Positions 1,684 to 59,372 of a DNA stretch of 64,000 bases are shown here, in pieces. Under the pieces are notes generated by a model. The model did not search any database, had not been told where the DNA came from, and worked only from the letters and a program-made list of their open reading frames with translations. Source of the stretch: Lentimicrobiaceae bacterium (GTDB taxonomy: Bacteria; Bacteroidota; Bacteroidia; Bacteroidales; UBA4417); assembly GCA_028697555.1 (NCBI GenBank), contig JAQVEX010000003.1:12450-76449 (forward strand). Reading direction: 5' to 3'. Position numbers and translations under genes: made by a program. Position 1 is the first letter of the stretch, and each line of letters opens with the position of its first letter.

Positions 1684-3198
1684 TTATTTTTCAGCTAACA
1701 TTTGTAATATTTCGTCAACATAATTTCTTTCATTGTTCAAACGGGGCACCTTATTCTGACCACCTAATCTTTCACGATTTCTCATCCATTCGTAAAAAGT
1801 TCCTCTGGGTACTGCATGTACTTTTGGCGGTTTTAGCATAATATCTTTATGCCTTTTGGCTTCGTAGTCGGAGTTTAAACTTTTAAGAGCCACATCAAGC
1901 TCGTGAGTAAAAGCGTCCACAGAATCGGGCACTTGCACAAACTCAATAATCCACTCGTGCATTGCAGTATTGTTATCTTCGTTGATATAAGGTGCAACGG
2001 TATAGTTTGTAAAATCGGAATTTGTGTTTCTGCAAGCAACTTCTAAAGCCTTGTTGGCATTGTCTTCAATAACTTCTTCTCCGAAAGTGTTGACAAAACT
2101 TGTGGTTCGTCCGGTAACCCTAATTCTGTACGGGTCTAAAGATGTAAATTCAATTGTATCGCCAATCATATACCGCCATAGTCCTGCATTGGTTGAAATA
2201 ACAACTGCATAATTTTTGCCCATTTCTACTTCCCAAATGGGATGACTTTTAGGATTATCGGATTGCAAGTTGCTTAACGGTATAAATTCGTAAAAGATGC
2301 CGTAATCAAGCATTAGCAACATATCGGTAGCTACTAACCTATCTTGTATTCCGAAAAATCCTTCGCTGGCATTGTATGTTTGCAGGTAATACAACGGTTT
2401 ACTCAATATTTTGTCGTAGTGATTTCTGTACGAAGAAAAATTAACACCACCATGAATAAAAAGCTCCAAGTCATTCCAAACTTCGTTGATGTACTTCTTT
2501 CCCGTCATTTCCAAAATTCTGTTAAGCATCACTAACATCCACGATGGGACACCCATAAGAGCAGTAACATTTTCCTTAATGGTTGCGTTTGACATCTGAT
2601 CTAGTTTTTCTTCCCAATCTTCAATCAAAGCTATATCAATACTTGGAGTGCGTGCCAATTGAGCCCAAAACGGAAGATTGTCCATAAGTATAGCCGACAC
2701 ATCACCGCAAGCAATTTGTCCACCAACTCCGTCTTGCTTAAGACTCCCTCCCATAGCCAATGTTTTTCCTTCTAATATTATTGAGTCGGGGTTGTTGTGC
2801 AAATAAATAGCTATTAGGTCTTTGCCGCCTTTGTAATGACAATCGTTGAGAGCTTCGTTAGTTACCGGAATAAATTTACTTTTGCTATTTGTTGTTCCTG
2901 AGCTTTTGGCAAACCATTTTACATCTGTATTCCACAAGATATTATTTTCGCCTGCTCGTAGCCTTTCAATGTATGGTTGCAAATCTTCGTACTTGCTAAT
3001 GGGAACGCGATTTACGTAATCGTAAAAATTGTTTATTGAATCGTAGTCGTATTTTTTGCCCCATTCGGTACTGCTACCGCTTTGCAAAAGCTTTTGTAAC
3101 CATTCCCTTTGTACTTCGTCGGGATACTTCAAAAAGTATTCTATTTGATGCATGCGCCGACGCATAAACCACGATACTATTGAGTTGAATATTGCCAT
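1684..3198 (-). CDS. GH3 auxin-responsive promoter family protein (acyl-adenylate-forming enzyme-like)
   Basis: 504 aa with FAKSSGTT and YNASEGFFG motifs, characteristic of the GH3 family that is widespread in Bacteroidota. Confidence 0.8.
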   Translation of the reverse strand: MAIFNSIVSWFMRRRMHQIEYFLKYPDEVQREWLQKLLQSGSSTEWGKKYDYDSINNFYDYVNRVPISKYEDLQPYIERLRAGENNILWNTDVKWFAKSSGTTNSKSKFIPVTNEALNDCHYKGGKDLIAIYLHNNPDSIILEGKTLAMGGSLKQDGVGGQIACGDVSAILMDNLPFWAQLARTPSIDIALIEDWEEKLDQMSNATIKENVTALMGVPSWMLVMLNRILEMTGKKYINEVWNDLELFIHGGVNFSSYRNHYDKILSKPLYYLQTYNASEGFFGIQDRLVATDMLLMLDYGIFYEFIPLSNLQSDNPKSHPIWEVEMGKNYAVVISTNAGLWRYMIGDTIEFTSLDPYRIRVTGRTTSFVNTFGEEVIEDNANKALEVACRNTNSDFTNYTVAPYINEDNNTAMHEWIIEFVQVPDSVDAFTHELDVALKSLNSDYEAKRHKDIMLKPPKVHAVPRGTFYEWMRNRERLGGQNKVPRLNNERNYVDEILQMLAEK

Positions 3199-3268
3199 CT
3201 CTGTTTTTAATTCTTATTTCCTAAAAATATTAAAAGTGGTAAAGGTAGTATTAAATCGCCAATAAAGG

Positions 3269-4294
3269 TCAAATTTTATATTTTTTAATTACATCAATTG
3301 TTCTATCAATCATATTATCATCGATACCTAAATGTGTTACCATTCTGATATTATTGTAACCCATGTGCATGGTCAGTATGCCGTCGTTCTTTAATTGACT
3401 GACATAATTATCGGCGTCTACTTTTGGGTCTAATTTAAAAAGAACAATATTGGTTTCAACTTTTGCTACGCTTTGCACATAGTTGAGTTTTTCTAATTCG
3501 GTGCTTAAAAGTTTAGCTCTTCTATGGTCGTCTTTCAGACGTAAAATATTATTGTCGAGTGCATAAATACAGGCTGCAGCCAAATAGCCTGACTGCCTCA
3601 TTCCTCCACCAAACATCTTTCGGTAGCGTCTTGCAGTATTTATAAATTTGCTATCTCCCATTAGCACCGAACCCACAGGAGCTCCCAATCCTTTCGACAT
3701 GCACACCGAAATACTGTCGAACAAATTTCCATAGTCTTCGGTTGTTTGCTCGGTTTCAACCAAAGCGTTGAACAGTCTGGCTCCGTCTAAGTGATATTTT
3801 AAATTATGCTTTTTGCATATTTTACCTATTTCCACCAATTTATTAAAATCGTAGATACTGCCACCGCCTTTATTCATGGTATTTTCGACAGACACTAAAG
3901 CTGTTGGCGGACGATGAACATCGTCGGATGGATTTATGTGATTTTCTACATCATCGGGGTCGAGATGACCTCTATCGCCGGATAACAAGCAAGTTGACAA
4001 GCCAGAATGAAAAGCCGGTCCTCCAGACTCATAGTAATATATATGCGACAACTTATGGCAAATAATCTCTTGTCCGGGTTGCGTATGAGTTTTTATAGCA
4101 ACCTGATTAGCCATAGTTCCCGAAGGAAAATACAGAGCACTTTCCTTATTAAACATTTTAGCGATTTTTTCTTCCAATCGCTTGGTTGTCGGGTCGCCTC
4201 CATATACATCGTCGCCAACCTGTGCCTGCATCATGTATTGGAGCATTTCGGGTGTTGGTTTTGTAACTGTATCGCTGAGTAAATCTACTATCAT
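3269..4294 (-). CDS. ltaE: low-specificity L-threonine aldolase (PLP-dependent)
   Basis: 341 aa. Motifs DLLSDTVTKPT, GDDVYGGDPT, FPSGTMANQ and the PLP-lysine region CMSKGLGAPVGS match the beta-eliminating lyase/threonine aldolase family. Confidence 0.85.
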   Translation of the reverse strand: MIVDLLSDTVTKPTPEMLQYMMQAQVGDDVYGGDPTTKRLEEKIAKMFNKESALYFPSGTMANQVAIKTHTQPGQEIICHKLSHIYYYESGGPAFHSGLSTCLLSGDRGHLDPDDVENHINPSDDVHRPPTALVSVENTMNKGGGSIYDFNKLVEIGKICKKHNLKYHLDGARLFNALVETEQTTEDYGNLFDSISVCMSKGLGAPVGSVLMGDSKFINTARRYRKMFGGGMRQSGYLAAACIYALDNNILRLKDDHRRAKLLSTELEKLNYVQSVAKVETNIVLFKLDPKVDADNYVSQLKNDGILTMHMGYNNIRMVTHLGIDDNMIDRTIDVIKKYKI

Positions 4295-5574: not shown

Positions 5575-6492
5575 ATGGCACACTTCAAAGAAAAGGTGTT
5601 CTCAAAAAGCTGGTTTATCAGTTATTCGCTCATAGTCATCGGTGCTTTTATTTTGGCATCAGGTTTTGTCTTTTTTATTACACCTTATAAAATAGTACCC
5701 GGCGGTTCTTACGGTATATCAATTGTTATACATCACGTAACAAAAGGTGTATTTTCGTGGGCTCCCAACGGTTTGCCTGTCGGTATGATGGCTCTTATGA
5801 TTGACATTCCGCTAACCATCATTGGGGTAAGGGTTTTAGGTCCAAGATTTGGAATTAAAACTGTAGTAGGATTTGTTTGTACGGCAATATTTGTCGATAC
5901 TCTCACATTTTTCTACGGAGAAAGTCCATTGGTGGAAGGTGACGCTTTGCTTTCGTCTATTTTTGGCGGATTGCTGATAGGGATTGGCTTAGGAATTATT
6001 TTTAAAAGTAAAGCTACTTCGGGCGGAACGGATATTGTGGCTATGATTTTGGCAAAATATTCAAAACTGACTGTAGGTCAATTGCTTATTTATGTCGATT
6101 CGGTTATTGTTCTATTAGGATTGGTTGTTTTTGCCGATTGGAAAATTCCGCTTTACTCGTTGGTTGTTATTTTTATTACAGGTAAAACTATTGATATTGT
6201 GAGCGAAGGAACAAACTTCGACCGTACTATGTTTATTATATCGAAAGAGTCGGAACTTATTCGCAACTTTATTATTGAAAAGTTGGAACGCGGTGGGACT
6301 TATATTCCCGGAACAGGTATGTACCAAGGCGATGAAAGAACGATAATATTTGTTGTTGTTAACCGCAGAGAAATGGCTTTGTTGGAAGAATACATACACA
6401 GCGTTGACCCCGAAGCGTTTATTACCATAATTGAAGCAAGCGAAATATACGGCGACGGCTTTAGGTCGCTTACAAAAAAACTATCAGATTAA
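5575..6492 (+). CDS. YitT family membrane protein (DUF2179 C-terminal domain)
   Basis: 305 aa. Multi-pass hydrophobic N-terminal part (PYKIVPGGSYGIS, ATSGGTDIV) plus a soluble C-terminal GGTYIPGTGMY...VVNRRE domain. Confidence 0.85.
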   Translation: MAHFKEKVFSKSWFISYSLIVIGAFILASGFVFFITPYKIVPGGSYGISIVIHHVTKGVFSWAPNGLPVGMMALMIDIPLTIIGVRVLGPRFGIKTVVGFVCTAIFVDTLTFFYGESPLVEGDALLSSIFGGLLIGIGLGIIFKSKATSGGTDIVAMILAKYSKLTVGQLLIYVDSVIVLLGLVVFADWKIPLYSLVVIFITGKTIDIVSEGTNFDRTMFIISKESELIRNFIIEKLERGGTYIPGTGMYQGDERTIIFVVVNRREMALLEEYIHSVDPEAFITIIEASEIYGDGFRSLTKKLSD

Positions 6493-6517: not shown

Positions 6518-7420
6518 ATGGAAATAAAAAACTTACGCAAAGAAATACCTTTTTCGAAGAGATGGTTTAAATCGTACTCCTACATAACTATTGGCACTTT
6601 GTTGGTTTCGATGGGATACGTGCTGTTTTTAAGTCCGCACAAGATAATACCAGGCGGAATTTATGGTATATCCATTATGCTGCACCACCTGTTTAACACT
6701 CCTATTGGTATGGTTTCATTGGCTTTCAATATTCCTTTAACACTAATAGGAACAAAAATATTAGGGCCCAGGTTTGGAGCCAAAACCGTAGTTGCTTTCG
6801 TACTTACAGGTATTTTTACCGATATTATATCAATGATAAGTGGTAATGTTGCTTTGGTTCCCGATGATACATTAGTTTCGGGTTTATTCGGTGGACTTTT
6901 CGTGGGCGTTGGAGTGGCTTTTACATTTAAAGCCAAAGCCACAAGTGGCGGAACCGACGTTGTTGCTATGATTTTGCAAAAGTACACACGTCTGCCAATA
7001 GGACAATTAATGATGTCGGTTGATGCCGTTATTGTTTTTATAAGCACTATTGTTTTCAAAGATTGGACTTTACCCTTGTACAGTTTTATTTCCATTTTTG
7101 TTATAGGTAGAGTTATAGATGCTGTTATGCACGGATTTTCGTACGATAAAACTTTGTTTATCATTTCCGATAAGCATCAGGAAATACGCGACAGCATTAT
7201 AGGTGATTTGGGACGTGGTGGTACTTTCTTGATTGGTGAAGGTATGTATAAATACAAATCGAAAAAAATAATTTTTACCGTTGTTAACCCTAAGGAGTTG
7301 TACATGCTTCAAGAGTTTATTCACCGAATAGACCCTAATGCTTTTATAGCAGTACTTGATGCTAGCGAAATTTTAGGAAAAGGCTTTAAGAATTTAGAAG
7401 ATAAGTTGGACGAGAAGTAG
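6518..7420 (+). CDS. YitT family membrane protein (tandem paralog)
   Basis: 300 aa. Colinear with the preceding ORF (PHKIIPGGIYGIS, ATSGGTDVV, GGTFLIGEGMY...VVNPKE). Confidence 0.85.
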   Translation: MEIKNLRKEIPFSKRWFKSYSYITIGTLLVSMGYVLFLSPHKIIPGGIYGISIMLHHLFNTPIGMVSLAFNIPLTLIGTKILGPRFGAKTVVAFVLTGIFTDIISMISGNVALVPDDTLVSGLFGGLFVGVGVAFTFKAKATSGGTDVVAMILQKYTRLPIGQLMMSVDAVIVFISTIVFKDWTLPLYSFISIFVIGRVIDAVMHGFSYDKTLFIISDKHQEIRDSIIGDLGRGGTFLIGEGMYKYKSKKIIFTVVNPKELYMLQEFIHRIDPNAFIAVLDASEILGKGFKNLEDKLDEK

Positions 7421-7565
7421 TGGGTGCGGGTTAGTTTTGAGTTTTGAGTTTTGAGTTCCGAGTTCTGAGTTCCGAGTTCCGAGTTCCGAGTCTCCAAACT
7501 CAATACTCTCGACTCAAAACTGACAACTCACCGACCACCGACCACCAACCACCAATCACCCAAAA
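7421..7565. repeat. mosaic heptamer-array intergenic element, copy A (type II, long imperfect hairpin)
   Basis: Fills the whole spacer between the convergent yitT-like and obg genes. Order: TGGGTGCGGGTTAG, then 8 tandem TTYYGAG heptamers (7435-7490), an A/C-rich complement (ACTCAATACTCTCGACTCAAAACTGAC), then 5 tandem CACCRAC heptamers (7529-7563). The outermost TGGGTG pairs with CACCCA. Confidence 0.9.
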
Positions 7566-8558
7566 TTATTCCTCCAACAGCTTCCACAAGTGGTTTTTAA
7601 GCTCGGTTAAGCCTTTTTTGTGATGTGATGAAATAAAAACTGTAGTAATATCCTTTGGTAATTCTTTTTTCAGCATCTCTATCAGTTCGTCGTCTAACAA
7701 ATCTGATTTGCTTACGGCAAGCATCCTTTTCTTATGTACAAGTTCAGGATTGTACATTTGCAATTCGTTTAAAAGAATTTTGTATTCCTTTTTTATACTT
7801 TTCGAATCGGCGGCTATGATGAATAATAATACCGAATTACGTTCAACGTGCCTTAAAAACCTGTGTCCCAAACCTTTGCCTTCGTGAGCTCCTTCAATAA
7901 TACCGGGAATATCTGCCATAATAAACGATTTATAATCGTAGTAAGAAACTATACCCAAATTTGGTCGCAGTGTAGTAAAAGGATAATCGCCTATTTCGGG
8001 TTTTGCTGCCGAAATGGTACTCAACAAAGTTGATTTACCGGCATTTGGGAAACCAACCAAACCCACGTCGGCTAATAGTTTTAGCTCGAAAATAACCCAT
8101 GCCTCGCTACCCGACTCTCCCGGCTGTGCGTATCGTGGAGCTTGATTTGTTGACGATTTAAAATTTATATTTCCAAGTCCGCCTTTGCCGCCTTTAACAA
8201 CTATGTGCTCTTCGTTGTCTTCAACAACTTCGCAAATAGCTTCGCCTGTTTCGGAATCTCTAATTACCGTTCCTAATGGAACTTTAATAACAACATCGTC
8301 GCCATCGGCTCCGGTTTTATTGTTTCCCGAGCCGCCAACTCCGTTTCCGGCATGCAAATGTTTGGTATATTTTAAATGTAGCAATGTCCACAGTTGAGCA
8401 TCTCCTCTGACAATAATATGACCTCCGCGACCGCCGTCGCCGCCGTCGGGACCTCCCTTAGGAATTCCTCTTGCTCTGTAAAAATGAGTCGAACCGCTAC
8501 CGCCATTACCGGAACGGACGTATATTTTTACGTAATCAACAAAGTTCGATAAAGCCAT
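7566..8558 (-). CDS. obg: GTPase Obg/CgtA
   Basis: Glycine-rich Obg fold ([11 protein letters not shown]...[12 protein letters not shown]), G1 motif [10 protein letters not shown]3 motif DIPG. Confidence 0.95.
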
Positions 8559-8574
8559 ACTATTCTATTTTCTC

Positions 8575-9744
8575 CTATCTGATTTTTAAAATTGCCTTGC
8601 CTACCTTAGCCGAAATACGATTAAAAATTTCCGCTTTTTCTCCCGTTGCATCAACAAGAACATGCTTACCTCTTTTTTTGTACAAATCCATAACAGGAGC
8701 CGTTTTGGTTTGGTACTCTTCGAGACGACCAATTATAAGTCCTGTAGATTTGTCGTAAGGACGTCCTTTTTCGGAACGACCTCTCTTGTCTAATCGCTTA
8801 ATGAGCTCGATTGTAGGTGCTGTCATTTCGATAACAAACGAAACATTCATGTTCATCTTTCGCAACAACCCGTCTAAAATGTAAGACTGCAATATTGTAC
8901 GCGGAAATCCTTTAAAAACAAATCCGTTGACATCGCTATGAAGTTTTATCTCACGTTCTATAATTCTTATAACTATCTCATCAGGAACAAGCTCACCTTG
9001 TTCTAATTTTGGTTTAATTACTTCACTCAATTTGGTGTTCATTTCAACCTCTTTGCGTAGCAATGAACCTGTAGAAATATAGTATAAGTTATATTTCTGA
9101 GCAATAAGCCTACCCTGCGTTCCTTTACCAACACCCGGAGGTCCCGAAAGCACCAAATTGAACCATACTTTTTGAAGTGCTTCATCAATAGCTTTTTGAA
9201 GCTTTTTAAAAATATCGGGTATATGCCCAACTCCATTTATTGCCTGATATAAATTTCTTTCCTTGTAATATTCTTTAACAGGAGCTGTTTTTTGATGATA
9301 CTCTTGAAGTCGGAACTGAATTACCTCTTCGTTATCGTCGCTCCTTCCGGACACTTTTCCTCTTTCAATAAGACGGCGGGTAAGCTCTTCGTCGGGAACT
9401 TCCAGACTTAACATACAAGTTAGAGTTGTGTTAAGTTTTAACAACAATCCGTCGAGTATGTACGCTTGTACTAAAGTTCTTGGAAAGCCATCGAAAAGAA
9501 ATCCGTTTTTGTCGGGATTGGTTATTATTCGTTTTTCAATAAGTTCAACCATAATATCGTCGGAAACGAGATTTCCTTTGGCTATCAGGTCATCAACCTG
9601 CTTTCCCAACTCAGTTCCTTCTTTAATTTCTTGACGTAACAAGTCGCCGGTTGAAATATATGCAAGGTTATACTTCTCAATAAGCAACTTTGACTGTGTT
9701 CCTTTTCCTGCTCCCGGAGGTCCGAATATAGCTATATTTAACAT
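8575..9744 (-). CDS. adk: tandem-fused double adenylate kinase (two complete short-LID Adk domains in one 389-aa ORF)
   Basis: Two P-loops (FGPPGAGKGTQ at the N-terminus; SGPPGVGKGTQ near residue 200). Each is followed by YISTG, GFPRT and a short LID region. There is no stop codon between the halves. Confidence 0.85.
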   Translation of the reverse strand: MLNIAIFGPPGAGKGTQSKLLIEKYNLAYISTGDLLRQEIKEGTELGKQVDDLIAKGNLVSDDIMVELIEKRIITNPDKNGFLFDGFPRTLVQAYILDGLLLKLNTTLTCMLSLEVPDEELTRRLIERGKVSGRSDDNEEVIQFRLQEYHQKTAPVKEYYKERNLYQAINGVGHIPDIFKKLQKAIDEALQKVWFNLVLSGPPGVGKGTQGRLIAQKYNLYYISTGSLLRKEVEMNTKLSEVIKPKLEQGELVPDEIVIRIIEREIKLHSDVNGFVFKGFPRTILQSYILDGLLRKMNMNVSFVIEMTAPTIELIKRLDKRGRSEKGRPYDKSTGLIIGRLEEYQTKTAPVMDLYKKRGKHVLVDATGEKAEIFNRISAKVGKAILKIR

Positions 9745-9769
9745 TTACCTTAAGGTTTATTAATATTTA

Positions 9770-10312
9770 TTACTTGTTTTCTTTTTTATAAATATGTGGG
9801 TAATTTCTGCCGTAGCCGTCTAAATCTAACCCATAGCCAACAATAAAATCGTTGGGTATCTCAAAGCCCACATAATCGACAGGGAAACGATTGTTAAATG
9901 AATCGGGCTTTAGTAAAAGTGTTGCTATTCTGACACTTTTAGGATTATGTTCATGCAATCTTGAAATAAAAAATTCAAGCGTTAAGCCTGTGTCAACAAT
10001 GTCTTCTACAATAATAACATCTTTGCCGTTTATATCAATATCTAGACCAAAAACTTCCCTAACTTTTCCCGAACTTTCTAATTTATCATATGAAGACAGT
10101 TTTACAAATGCCAATTGACAATGACCCGAAAATCTTTTTACCAAATCGGATGCAAACATAAAAGAACCGTTAAGTATTACTATAAAAATCGGATCCTTGT
10201 CTTTGTACTCGGAATTTATTGTATAGCTTATCTGATTAATTTTTTCAACTATATCAGTTTCTTCTATATACTTCTTAAAGTCAATCCCGTCAATACTTAT
10301 TTGATTAGGCAT
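9770..10312 (-). CDS. hpt: hypoxanthine phosphoribosyltransferase
   Basis: 180 aa. PRPP-binding motif VIIVEDIVDTGLT and C-terminal DFIVGYGLD typical of Hpt. Confidence 0.9.
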   Translation of the reverse strand: MPNQISIDGIDFKKYIEETDIVEKINQISYTINSEYKDKDPIFIVILNGSFMFASDLVKRFSGHCQLAFVKLSSYDKLESSGKVREVFGLDIDINGKDVIIVEDIVDTGLTLEFFISRLHEHNPKSVRIATLLLKPDSFNNRFPVDYVGFEIPNDFIVGYGLDLDGYGRNYPHIYKKENK

Positions 10313-10486
10313 AAAATTCTATCATTTAATTGCAAAAATGCAAAGTTAGAATTTTATTTAAATTTATTCCTGTCATTTCTAAATAAGTATGACAAATTTC
10401 ATGTTTTTTGCTGATTACTTACTTGTTTTCAAGCATTTTCATCTTTATCATTTACTTTTTTGTTGTGTTTAAAGGATAAAGCTTTT

Positions 10487-10642
10487 GCGTGTTGCGGGGT
10501 ACGAGTTGCGGGTTAGTTTTGTCCCGAAATTTCGGGACAAAACTGACAACTCACCGACCACCAACCACCAACGACCGATCACTCATCACTAATCACCAAA
10601 AGCTAACGGCTAACGGCTAACGGCTAACAGCCAAAAGCTAAT
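10487..10642. repeat. mosaic heptamer-array intergenic element, copy B (type II)
   Basis: Order: GCGTGTTGCGGGGTACGAGTTGCGGGTTAG, a perfect 30-nt palindrome AGTTTTGTCCCGAAATTTCGGGACAAAACT (10515-10544), a CACCGAC/CACCAAC/CATCACT array, then a GCTAACG x3-4 array. Lies in the divergent hpt/purE spacer. Confidence 0.9.
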
Positions 10643-10665
10643 AATTCAAAATAACTTTCAATAAC

Positions 10666-10696
10666 TTTGATAAAACACGCAAATATTATACTTTTG
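10666..10696 (+). promoter_or_regulatory. putative Bacteroidota-type sigma-A promoter for purE (TTTG-N19-TACTTTTG)
   Basis: TTTG at 10666-10669 and TACTTTTG at 10689-10696, matching the published Bacteroides -33 TTTG / -7 TAnnTTTG consensus with 19-nt spacing. The box lies 16 nt upstream of the ATG at 10712. Confidence 0.45.
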
Positions 10697-10711
10697 AAAA
10701 AAATTAAAAAG

Positions 10712-35572: not shown

Positions 35573-35775
35573 TGGTACGGGTTACGGGTTGCGGGGTGCG
35601 GGGTGCGGGTTAGTCCCGAAGTTTCGGAAGAGTTACGAGTTATGAGTCGGGAGTTTTGAGTTAGGAGTTAGGAGTTACGAATATTTTTCCTGACTCAGAA
35701 CTCAAAACTCAGAACTAATTCACTAACCACTCATCACCCATCACCCATCACCCATCACCAACCACCGACCACCAC
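35573..35775. repeat. mosaic heptamer-array intergenic element, copy D (type II, long imperfect hairpin)
   Basis: Order: GGTTACG/GGTTGCG/GGGTGCG heptamers, GGGTTAG, hairpin TCCCGAAGTTTCGGA, GAGTTAYG-type units, a loop, complementary CTCAGAACTCAAAACTCAGAAC, then CATCACC x3 and ACCACCGACCACC. Begins right after the stop of the upstream gene. Confidence 0.9.
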
Positions 35776-45258: not shown

Positions 45259-45600
45259 TTGGTGAATGGTGGTGGGTGAATGGTGGTGGGTGAATGGTGG
45301 TGAGTGATGGGTGGTGAGTGATGGGTGGTGAGTGATGGGTGGTGAGTGATGGGTGGTGAGTGATGGGTGGTGAGTGATGGGTGGTGAGTGGTGGCTTATA
45401 TCAATTATCAATTATCAATTATCAATTATCAATTATCAATGAACAATGAACCCCGAAACTTCGGGACTAATTACTAATTGTTAATTGCTAATTAAAAATT
45501 ACCACGTAACACGCAACACGTAACCCGCAACACGCAACACGCAACACGCAACCCGCAACCCGAACCCGCCAACAGCTAACAGCTAAAGGCTAAAAGCTGC
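45259..45600. repeat. mosaic heptamer-array intergenic element, copy E (type I, largest, ~340 bp)
   Basis: 3 x GGTGAATGGTGGTG plus 6 x AGTGATGGGTGGTG (nine contiguous 14-mers, 45261-45386). 5 x ATCAATT plus ATCAATG plus AACAATG (45400-45448). Hairpin CCCGAAACTTCGGG (45452-45465). CTAATTA/CTAATTG/TTAATTG units. ACACGCA/ACCCGCA heptamers (45502-45570). AACAGCT/AAAGGCT units (45571-45598). Confidence 0.95.
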
Positions 45601-49607: not shown

Positions 49608-49780
49608 CTTGGCTGTTAGCTGTTAGCTCTTAGCCTTTAGCTGTTGGCAATGAGCAATGAGCAATGAGCAATGAGCAATGAACACCGAAACTTCGGGGTT
49701 AATTATTAATTGATAATTGTTAATTGAAAATTGCCACGCACCTCGAAACCCGCAACCCGCAACCCGTACCAACCACCACC
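49608..49780. repeat. mosaic heptamer-array intergenic element, copy F (type I)
   Basis: Order: GCTGTTA/GCTCTTA units, 5 x GCAATGA (49647-49681), hairpin CCGAAACTTCGG (49685-49696), TTAATTA/TTAATTG/ATAATTG units, CCACGCACC, CCGCAAC x2-3, then ACCAACCACCACC. Fills the whole spacer between the convergent hypothetical gene and udk. Confidence 0.95.
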
Positions 49781-59232: not shown

Positions 59233-59372
59233 TGGTTGGTGGTCGGGGTTGGGGTTAGTTCTGAGTTATGAGTTATGAGTTACGAGTTACGAGTTCTGAG
59301 TGTCAAAACTCCAGACTCAAAACTCGAAACTCGAAACTCACACGCAACACACAACTAATAACGCTTTATAAC
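59233..59372. repeat. mosaic heptamer-array intergenic element, copy G (type II, long imperfect hairpin)
   Basis: Order: TGGTTGGTGGTCGGGGTTGGGGTTAG, GAGTTAT/GAGTTAC/GAGTTCT heptamers, complementary CTCAAAACTCGAAACTCGAAACTC, then CACGCAACACACAAC. Fills the spacer between the convergent NahK-like and M20 genes. Confidence 0.9.

Follow-up and report, generated by a model that had tools for sequence, protein, structure and literature searches.

Adenylate kinase (Adk) is a textbook model for enzyme dynamics and for Mg2+-assisted phosphoryl transfer, and the bacterial enzyme is regarded as small, monomeric, single-domain and essential. Polypeptides with two or more complete ADK domains include the eukaryotic proteins AK5 and AK8, in which both domains have been reported to be active, and flagellar multi-Adk proteins. 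In the literature searched, the only characterised multi-domain bacterial Adk was the bifunctional HGPRT/adenylate kinase fusion of Zobellia galactanivorans, for which both activities were measured (PMC7326950). Here we analyse an adk-adk fusion gene in a 64,000-nucleotide stretch of DNA from a Lentimicrobiaceae bacterium (assembly GCA_028697555.1, contig JAQVEX010000003.1, positions 12,450 to 76,449; hereafter the window, with position 1 as its first letter). The gene encodes two Adk modules on a single polypeptide of 389 residues and belongs to what appears to be a conserved, uncharacterised family of bacterial tandem Adks, the second domain of which is probably a pseudo-kinase.

Compared with single-domain Adks of the short-LID type (NF001381/PF00406), module 1 of the fusion is a full member with all catalytic residues present, but the protein differs in carrying a second Adk-fold module with Lys at the Mg2+ anchor and in a Q-[AS]-Y-I-L-x-G-L helix shared by the two modules. 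With AK5, AK8 and the flagellar proteins it has in common at least two complete ADK domains per polypeptide; its origin, however, is independent of the eukaryotic AK5/AK8 type, its modules being each other's closest relatives among the sampled bacterial short-LID Adks, and the invariant Asp-to-Lys exchange is specific to the bacterial fused family. The Zobellia protein likewise is a multi-domain Adk that derives from the Bacteroidota hpt-adk gene pair, but it joins hpt to adk (PMC7326950), whereas in the window hpt is a separate gene 25 nt upstream and adk is duplicated. Pfam gave no Pribosyltran match within the 389-residue protein. Two Pribosyltran-ADK proteins with the architecture of the Zobellia enzyme (P0195, 382 residues; P0254, 375 residues) are among the best representative matches of module 2, and the hpt-adk pair would therefore have been fused independently in another lineage.

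Two adenylate kinase modules in one reading frame

According to the list of open reading frames (ORFs) and the sequence itself, the 389 codons of the fusion gene form one continuous frame that is interrupted neither by a stop nor by a frameshift. The gene and its relevant parts, with residues numbered along the fused protein, are:

8575-9744, minus strand: complete adk-adk fusion gene of 389 codons, followed by a TAG stop (8575-8577)
9166-9744, minus strand: module 1 (residues 1-193), canonical short-LID adenylate kinase and presumed housekeeping catalyst
9694-9723, minus strand: module 1 P-loop GPPGAGKGTQ (residues 8-17), with K14 as the catalytic Lys
9475-9495, minus strand: module 1 FDGFPRT (residues 84-90), with D85, the equivalent of E. 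coli D84 and AK1 D93 at the end of strand 3, as Mg2+ anchor
9442-9468, minus strand: module 1 helix QAYILDGLL (residues 93-101), bearing the signature of the fusion family, with Y95, I96 and G99 100% conserved
9325-9348, minus strand: module 1 short LID GRSDDNEE (residues 133-140), from sequence and alignment
9157-9174, minus strand: junction QKVWFN (residues 191-196), without a stop or an internal Met
8578-9165, minus strand: module 2 (residues 194-389), diverged Adk-fold domain without the Mg2+-anchoring Asp, from the Pfam ADK match and alignment
9115-9144, minus strand: module 2 P-loop GPPGVGKGTQ (residues 201-210), with K207 kept
8896-8916, minus strand: module 2 FKGFPRT (residues 277-283), with K278 (codon AAA, 8911-8913) in place of the Mg2+-anchoring Asp
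8863-8889, minus strand: module 2 helix QSYILDGLL (residues 286-294), with the same signature and Y288, I289 and G292 invariant
8740-8781, minus strand: module 2 LID GRSEKGRPYDKSTG (residues 322-335), two residues longer than the module 1 LID

Pfam ADK (PF00406) matched the frame in two stretches (E = 5.5e-92 overall), and the two modules share 42% identity in an end-to-end alignment (E = 1e-50). On NF001381, the NCBIfam equivalog model for short-LID adk, module 1 scored 225.9 bits against a cutoff of 187, whereas module 2, with 174.7 bits, remained under it; membership in the adenylate kinase family holds for module 1 and for the protein as a whole, not for module 2 as an equivalog. Module 1 is 50-53% identical to single-domain Bacteroidota Adks that occupy the hpt-adk-obg position. 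A preliminary description, based on the letters of the window and its ORFs, had proposed a genuine tandem double adenylate kinase, and the two Pfam domains in an unbroken frame agree with it. All motifs that it quoted for each of the two modules are present, and the module boundary, around residues 193/194 (nt 9166/9165), falls at most 3 nt from where it had been placed.

The preliminary description had also advised looking for orthologous fusions in related Bacteroidota, and fused relatives turned out to be numerous. In a search of 5.8 billion proteins, the 120 best clusters matched at 62-98% identity over 99-100% of the query, and 117 of these closest 90%-identity clusters are exactly 389 residues long, their members being drawn from assemblies of NCBI, JGI, ENA and Logan, in part from contigs longer than 5 Mb. 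With a Puniceicoccaceae protein as query, a second search returned another 120 clusters, among them Opitutales isolates and further metagenome-assembled genomes (MAGs) of Bacteroidota. In total, over 240 independent clusters at 90% identity have the two-ADK architecture of about 389 residues; they represent Bacteroidales (Lentimicrobiaceae, Salinivirgaceae), Opitutales and one Cloacimonadota MAG. Isolates with the fusion include Lentimicrobium saccharophilum (WP_062045167.1), Pelagicoccus mobilis (WP_200358942.1) and Pelagicoccus sp. SDUM812003 (WP_309016685.1), and among GTDB species representatives the full-length fusion is encoded in 14 genomes (Lentimicrobiaceae, unclassified Bacteroidales, Salinivirgaceae, one MAG labelled Cloacimonadota and one labelled Puniceicoccaceae). 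The protein of another Lentimicrobiaceae MAG (L001) is 98% identical to that of the window.

Judged by this distribution, the fusion is the standard form of adk in several Bacteroidales families and in Opitutales. The preliminary description had considered that the double-domain form might prove to be the standard, already characterised Adk of its lineage. The first half of that proposition agrees with the distribution, but the second does not: the literature searched, the coverage of which excludes most subscription journals, yielded no account of an adk-adk fusion in bacteria. NCBIfam has no model specific for the fusion, and the source names of the fused proteins read only "adenylate kinase", a label to be used with caution because it is applied to all fused members alike.

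An assembly or sequencing error might be suspected to have removed a stop or a frameshift between adjacent adk paralogues. Only one observation could seem to speak for such an error, namely an apparent stand-alone module 2 in the representative library (P0141, 202 residues). P0141, however, begins 25 nt away from one end of a contig of 1,089 bp, and we therefore regard it as a truncated fused gene. Moreover, the 389-residue product recurs throughout the more than 240 clusters, in independent assemblies and in isolate genomes, with conserved junction residues. Because the relatives share the 389-residue architecture at full coverage, we consider the probability of an artefact negligible, and the idea of two genes misread as one was rejected in view of the continuous frame, the same product in independent assemblies and isolates, and the conserved junction.

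Residue states, selection and predicted structure of the modules

We aligned 246 full-length fused members and mapped their positions onto the Adk of E. coli and onto human AK1, the published residue numbers of both references being reproduced by the alignment. The fused family consists of two reciprocally monophyletic subfamilies. Type A contains 127 sequences, including the window protein, and type B contains 119 (P0272-P0390; L014 5010-6179), from Opitutales (including Pelagicoccus isolates, P0318/P0393) and some Bacteroidota MAGs. In module 1, all 12 catalytic residues checked (K13, T15, R36, D84, R88, Q92, R119, R123, R156, D158, D159 and R167 in E. coli numbering) show no variation across the 246 sequences, in agreement with the canonical motifs that the preliminary description had noted in this module. 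In terms of the fused protein, the P-loop Lys (K14) and the Mg2+ anchor (D85) occur in every member, and both Asp residues of the LID pair, D136 and D137, are invariant; the position of E. coli D33 is occupied by Asp in 233 members and by Glu in 13.

Module 2 presents a different picture. The position equivalent to D84 is Lys in all 246 fused proteins. Across the 150 best 50%-identity representatives, surveyed with the motif xG[FYW]P[RK] at one occurrence per Adk-type domain, the anchor residue is Asp in 275 of 303 occurrences and Lys in eight, and all eight belong to the fused family. The second site of change is the LID, where Y330 is Tyr in 245 of the 246 sequences and D331 is invariant; one Asp of the D158/D159 pair is kept as D331, and the other position corresponds to Y330 or K332, depending on the alignment. 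At the D33 position, the window protein has Ser, and most of the 246 have Ser, Pro or Ala. These states bear out the divergence that the preliminary description had noted at FKGFPRT and in the LID. Separately, one 50%-identity cluster representative, the fused Adk P0134 (395 residues), has an Ala/Gly/Arg/Pro-rich stretch unlike the family directly after its module 2 FKGFPRT, as if the gene had been called with a frameshift in the assembly from which it comes.

Much of the remaining active site is retained. Equivalents of R88, Q92, R119, R123 and R167 are invariant in module 2 of all 246 sequences, and module 2 of the window protein, as does module 1, keeps R36, R88, R119, R123, R156 and R167 together with Q92. 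It also keeps the residues of the nucleoside monophosphate (NMP) site, T31, R36, R88 and Q92. As a whole, the NMP-binding region shows greater divergence in module 2 than in module 1. Over 121 sequences, 56 of 195 module 2 positions are at least 98% conserved. The P-loop Lys position is split within the family (Lys in 127 sequences, Arg in 117, Cys in two). Type A members retain R156 in module 2 along with both the Lys and the Thr of its P-loop, and all but one retain R36; on the numbering of the fused protein, K207, T209, R282, Q286, R317, R321, R328, D331 and R340 are invariant and R230 is present in all members but one. In type B, the P-loop Lys is replaced by Arg or Cys and the Thr by Ser, R36 is mostly Glu or Asp, and R156 is Met in all but two. 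We take D33-R156 and R36-D158 to belong to the salt bridges by which the LID closes over the NMP domain, and it is on these positions that the changes in module 2 fall: all members are affected at D33 and at one LID Asp, and type B at R36 and R156 as well.

The importance of the anchor position can be gauged from E. coli Adk, in which D84 places Mg2+ via two water molecules, and the D84A variant of which crystallises without Mg2+ (PMC11313852). The exchange lowers kcat from 330 to 1.8 s-1, or about 180-fold, and raises Km from 70 to 470 µM (PMC11313852). By analogy, a cationic Lys at this site should be at least as disruptive as Ala for Mg-ATP chemistry.

Both halves of the protein are nevertheless maintained. 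The ratio of nonsynonymous to synonymous substitution rates (dN/dS) ranges from 0.022 to 0.133 in module 1 and from 0.026 to 0.059 in module 2; these values are confined to close pairs, since dS is saturated in the deeper pairs WIN-L002 (WIN being the window protein), L008-L009 and L010-L012. These sequence comparisons indicate strong purifying selection on both modules. Over longer distances module 2 diverges faster, with a mean identity between types A and B of 46%, as compared with 57% for module 1; within type B, the two are similarly conserved (76% for module 2 vs 78% for module 1). The low dN/dS, together with a type B module 2 as conserved as module 1, indicates that module 2 is functional rather than decaying in both subfamilies, even where the P-loop Lys has been lost.

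Two further features are common to types A and B. In both modules, the helix that follows GFPRT contains an invariant Q-[AS]-Y-I-L-x-G-L, while the corresponding columns of 48 single-domain Adks hold mostly Glu, Ala and Lys, with no Tyr, one Ile and one Gly. We hypothesise that these helices mark an interface between the modules or within an oligomer, perhaps a pseudo-symmetric one. The second feature is a short connection. In AlphaFold2 (AF2) models, the C-terminal helix of module 1 (H175-191) leads through a three-residue linker into the first strand of module 2 (E195-200), and the junction residues W194, F195 and N196 are nearly invariant among 49 aligned close relatives. Together with the length of 389 residues, fixed in 117 of 120 clusters, the three-residue linker points to tight coupling of the modules.

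The models were computed from 49 type A sequences (predicted local distance difference test [pLDDT] 88.6, predicted template modelling score [pTM] 0.65) and from 146 type A and B sequences (pLDDT 87.7, pTM 0.62); confidence is good for each domain, but the relative orientation of the modules is not fixed. In the second model, confidence is higher for module 2 than for the mobile segments (LID and NMP) of module 1, with pLDDT values over 10-residue blocks of 86 for the module 2 LID vs 66 for the module 1 LID, a weak hint that module 2 may be the less dynamic of the two. By sequence, the best PDB matches (8pvw_A, E = 2.6e-44; 3cm0_A; others) are all single-domain Adks, and against the PDB Foldseek gave template modelling (TM) scores of 0.7-0.89 per module with such enzymes. 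Its top match was 9fqr_G8, a chain of 475 residues from the axoneme of bovine sperm that aligned over both modules. The two proteins differ in inter-domain arrangement: 9fqr_G8 does not superpose on the fusion (root-mean-square deviation 17.9 Å, TMq 0.40), a comparison limited by the uncertain placement of the domains in the AF2 models (pTM 0.62-0.65). Apart from single-domain Adks and this poorly superposing chain, Foldseek against the PDB retrieved no solved structure with the inter-domain arrangement of the adk-adk fusion.

Possible functions of module 2

Based on these results, we suggest that module 1 is the housekeeping catalyst and that module 2 binds nucleotides, performs little or no catalysis and has a regulatory or stabilising role, a reading to which we give somewhat better than even chances. 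Module 1 would be the working enzyme, a canonical short-LID, Mg2+-dependent ATP:AMP phosphotransferase. Module 2 would keep the Adk fold and, in type A, the ability to bind adenine nucleotides, as is likely given that its P-loop Lys, the residues of the AMP site and the phosphate-binding Arg residues are all still in place. With K278 in place of the Mg2+-anchoring Asp and with the loss of acidic residues of the LID and NMP domain, it should support little or no normal phosphotransfer. It may thus be a pseudo-kinase domain that partners module 1 without catalysing the reaction itself, either as a nucleotide or energy-charge sensor or as a stabilising domain, rigidly joined to it via the three-residue linker.

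The comparison of the two subfamilies favours this proposal. The Asp-to-Lys exchange is common to all members and further losses are confined to type B, in which the module is still conserved, a pattern that supports a non-catalytic role. Moreover, that type B module 2 has lost the P-loop Lys, R36 and R156 and yet remains conserved implies that the ancestral function shared by both types of module 2 was something other than canonical catalysis. Several points weigh against a non-catalytic module 2 rigidly coupled to module 1. Type A module 2 keeps its P-loop Lys and the full set of six catalytic Arg residues, as one would also expect of an active kinase; Lys278 might conceivably supply the positive charge that normally comes from Mg2+; and E. 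coli D84A retains 0.5% of activity, so that a crippled enzyme need not be a dead one (PMC11313852). In addition, AF2 gave no confident arrangement of the modules at a pTM of 0.65 or 0.62, and for this reason their physical coupling is something we infer.

The same retained residues can be read as evidence that both modules are active Adks, as has been reported for human AK5 and AK8, which would provide doubled sites or isoenzyme-like sites with different kinetics, Lys278 being tolerated or replacing Mg2+ electrostatically in a metal-independent or metal-relaxed phosphoryl transfer. Besides the P-loop Lys/Thr, R88, Q92, R119, R123, R156 and R167, and R36 in all members but one, that type A module 2 keeps, the confident Pfam ADK match and a purifying selection as strong as that on module 1 are in line with this possibility. 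Yet the anchor is Lys in every member, and where E. coli D84A already costs about 180-fold in kcat and the active-site Mg2+ (PMC11313852), a cationic side chain should repel the metal even more. The conservation of type B module 2 despite the loss of its P-loop Lys, R36 and R156, and the score of module 2 under the NCBIfam adk equivalog cutoff, likewise argue against activity of both modules, to which we assign about one chance in four. A changed NMP specificity of module 2 had been raised in the preliminary description and appears improbable, be it for CMP, UMP, GMP or dAMP. It could draw on the greater divergence of the NMP-binding region of module 2 and on weak partial matches to UMP-CMP kinase and cytidylate kinase models, but module 1 shows such matches as well, the best NCBIfam matches are all adk models, and the UMP-CMP kinase family model TIGR01359 reached 111.5 bits against a cutoff of 207.6. 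T31, R36, R88 and Q92, which we take to be AMP-site residues with Q92 reading adenine, are all present in module 2 of the window protein. What differs there is the Mg2+ anchor (D84 to Lys) and, among the acidic LID/NMP residues, D33 (to Ser) and one of D158/D159. The changes that are invariant in the family concern the metal site and the LID and spare base recognition; the problem posed by Lys at the D84 position, moreover, applies to any kinase activity.

The suggestion of a regulatory role, made in the preliminary description alongside that of altered specificity, fares better and is favoured by the evidence in a broadened form, as a regulatory or a structural and stabilising role. A more far-reaching version of our proposal, which we put forward tentatively and with odds well short of even, is that module 2 represents an unrecognised class of bacterial pseudo-adenylate-kinases that bind a ligand free of Mg2+, with Lys278 taking the place of the metal, and that allosterically set the activity of the fused Adk. 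Candidate ligands would be adenine nucleotides or the charged Ap4A/Ap5A or (p)ppGpp. The products of hpt and obg are known (p)ppGpp targets in other bacteria. If this version were true, the fusion would have a built-in energy-charge or alarmone sensor within an adenylate-balancing enzyme that is encoded between hpt and obg. In a related variant, type A module 2 would be a lysine-assisted, Mg2+-independent phosphotransferase.

The proposal of a non-catalytic partner overturns no existing concept. The fused family would, however, offer a natural experiment on the roles of the Mg2+ anchor and of LID residues, and likely a bacterial case of a pseudoenzyme domain paired with its active paralogue, with type B displaying a stepwise further loss of catalytic residues under continued selection. 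Independently of the fused family, proteins with several Adk domains in tandem seem to contain degenerate ones repeatedly: in multi-Adk proteins of 466-1529 residues (P0129, P0136, P0144, P0146, P0161, P0164, P0165, P0179, P0197, P0199, P0200, P0212 and P0269), some anchor positions hold Glu, Ala, Thr, Ser or Gln, and P0144 has at least four occurrences of the anchor motif.

Origin and genomic setting of the fusion

In a neighbour-joining tree of the fused modules and single-domain short-LID Adks, built from bacterial sequences only, all module 1 sequences form one clade and all module 2 sequences another, and the two are sisters relative to the sampled single-domain Adks. The terminal sister pairs WIN+L002, L003+L005, L006+L010 and L008+L009 recur in both clades. 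Sister module clades with matching sub-groupings point to a single duplication and fusion. In the window, the fusion gene is flanked by two genes on the same strand:

9770-10312, minus strand: hpt (phosphoribosyltransferase), ending 25 nt upstream of adk-adk (Pfam Pribosyltran, E = 1.2e-26; synteny)
7566-8558, minus strand: obg GTPase, starting 16 nt downstream of adk-adk (Pfam GTP1_OBG, E = 1.7e-57, and MMR_HSR1; synteny)

These Pfam matches agree with the hpt-adk-obg neighbourhood claimed in the preliminary description. The fused gene lies between hpt and obg in L001-L005, and a single-domain adk is found in the same gene order in other Bacteroidota (L017, L018, L020, L022 and L024). The simplest history would be a single ancient tandem duplication in situ, with in-frame fusion, at the hpt-adk-obg locus, followed by co-divergence of the modules. 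That the fusion replaces the housekeeping adk rather than supplementing it, as the preliminary description had held, fits the shared slot, and no further adk-like sequence was found in the 64-kb window. A scan of positions 7300-10700 for promoters and terminators gave an outcome not above that of shuffled sequence, and a scan with Rfam matched no family anywhere in the window.

Outside Bacteroidota, the setting is different. The loci L013 and L014 have unrelated neighbours (glutamate dehydrogenases, TetR, Hsp70-like, DUF2760 and NadA), and around the fused adk of these two loci there is no hpt, obg or ribosomal cluster, a setting as compatible with horizontal transfer as with mis-binning. The spread of type B across phyla suggests horizontal transfer or a very old ancestry. 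L013, from the MAG labelled Cloacimonadota, has tandem glutamate/leucine dehydrogenase genes (795-2138 and 2565-3911) and a TetR regulator upstream of the fused adk.

Two additional observations concern the sequence around the operon. Adjacent to hpt-adk-obg lies another tandem gene duplication, consisting of two neighbouring paralogous membrane proteins of the YitT family (5575-6492 and 6518-7420, both on the plus strand), each with a C-terminal DUF2179. Furthermore, the window contains many short tandem arrays with a period of 7 bp or multiples thereof, at 7433-7491, 10602-10641, 35574-35774, 45268-45574, 49647-49733 and 59257-59339, with units such as AGTTTTG/GAGTTCC, GCTAACG, GGTGGTGAGTGATG (nine copies), TATCAAT (six copies) and CACGCAA (eight copies). 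All of these arrays, including two that lie on either side of the hpt-adk-obg operon, are located outside the listed window ORFs of at least 150 residues.

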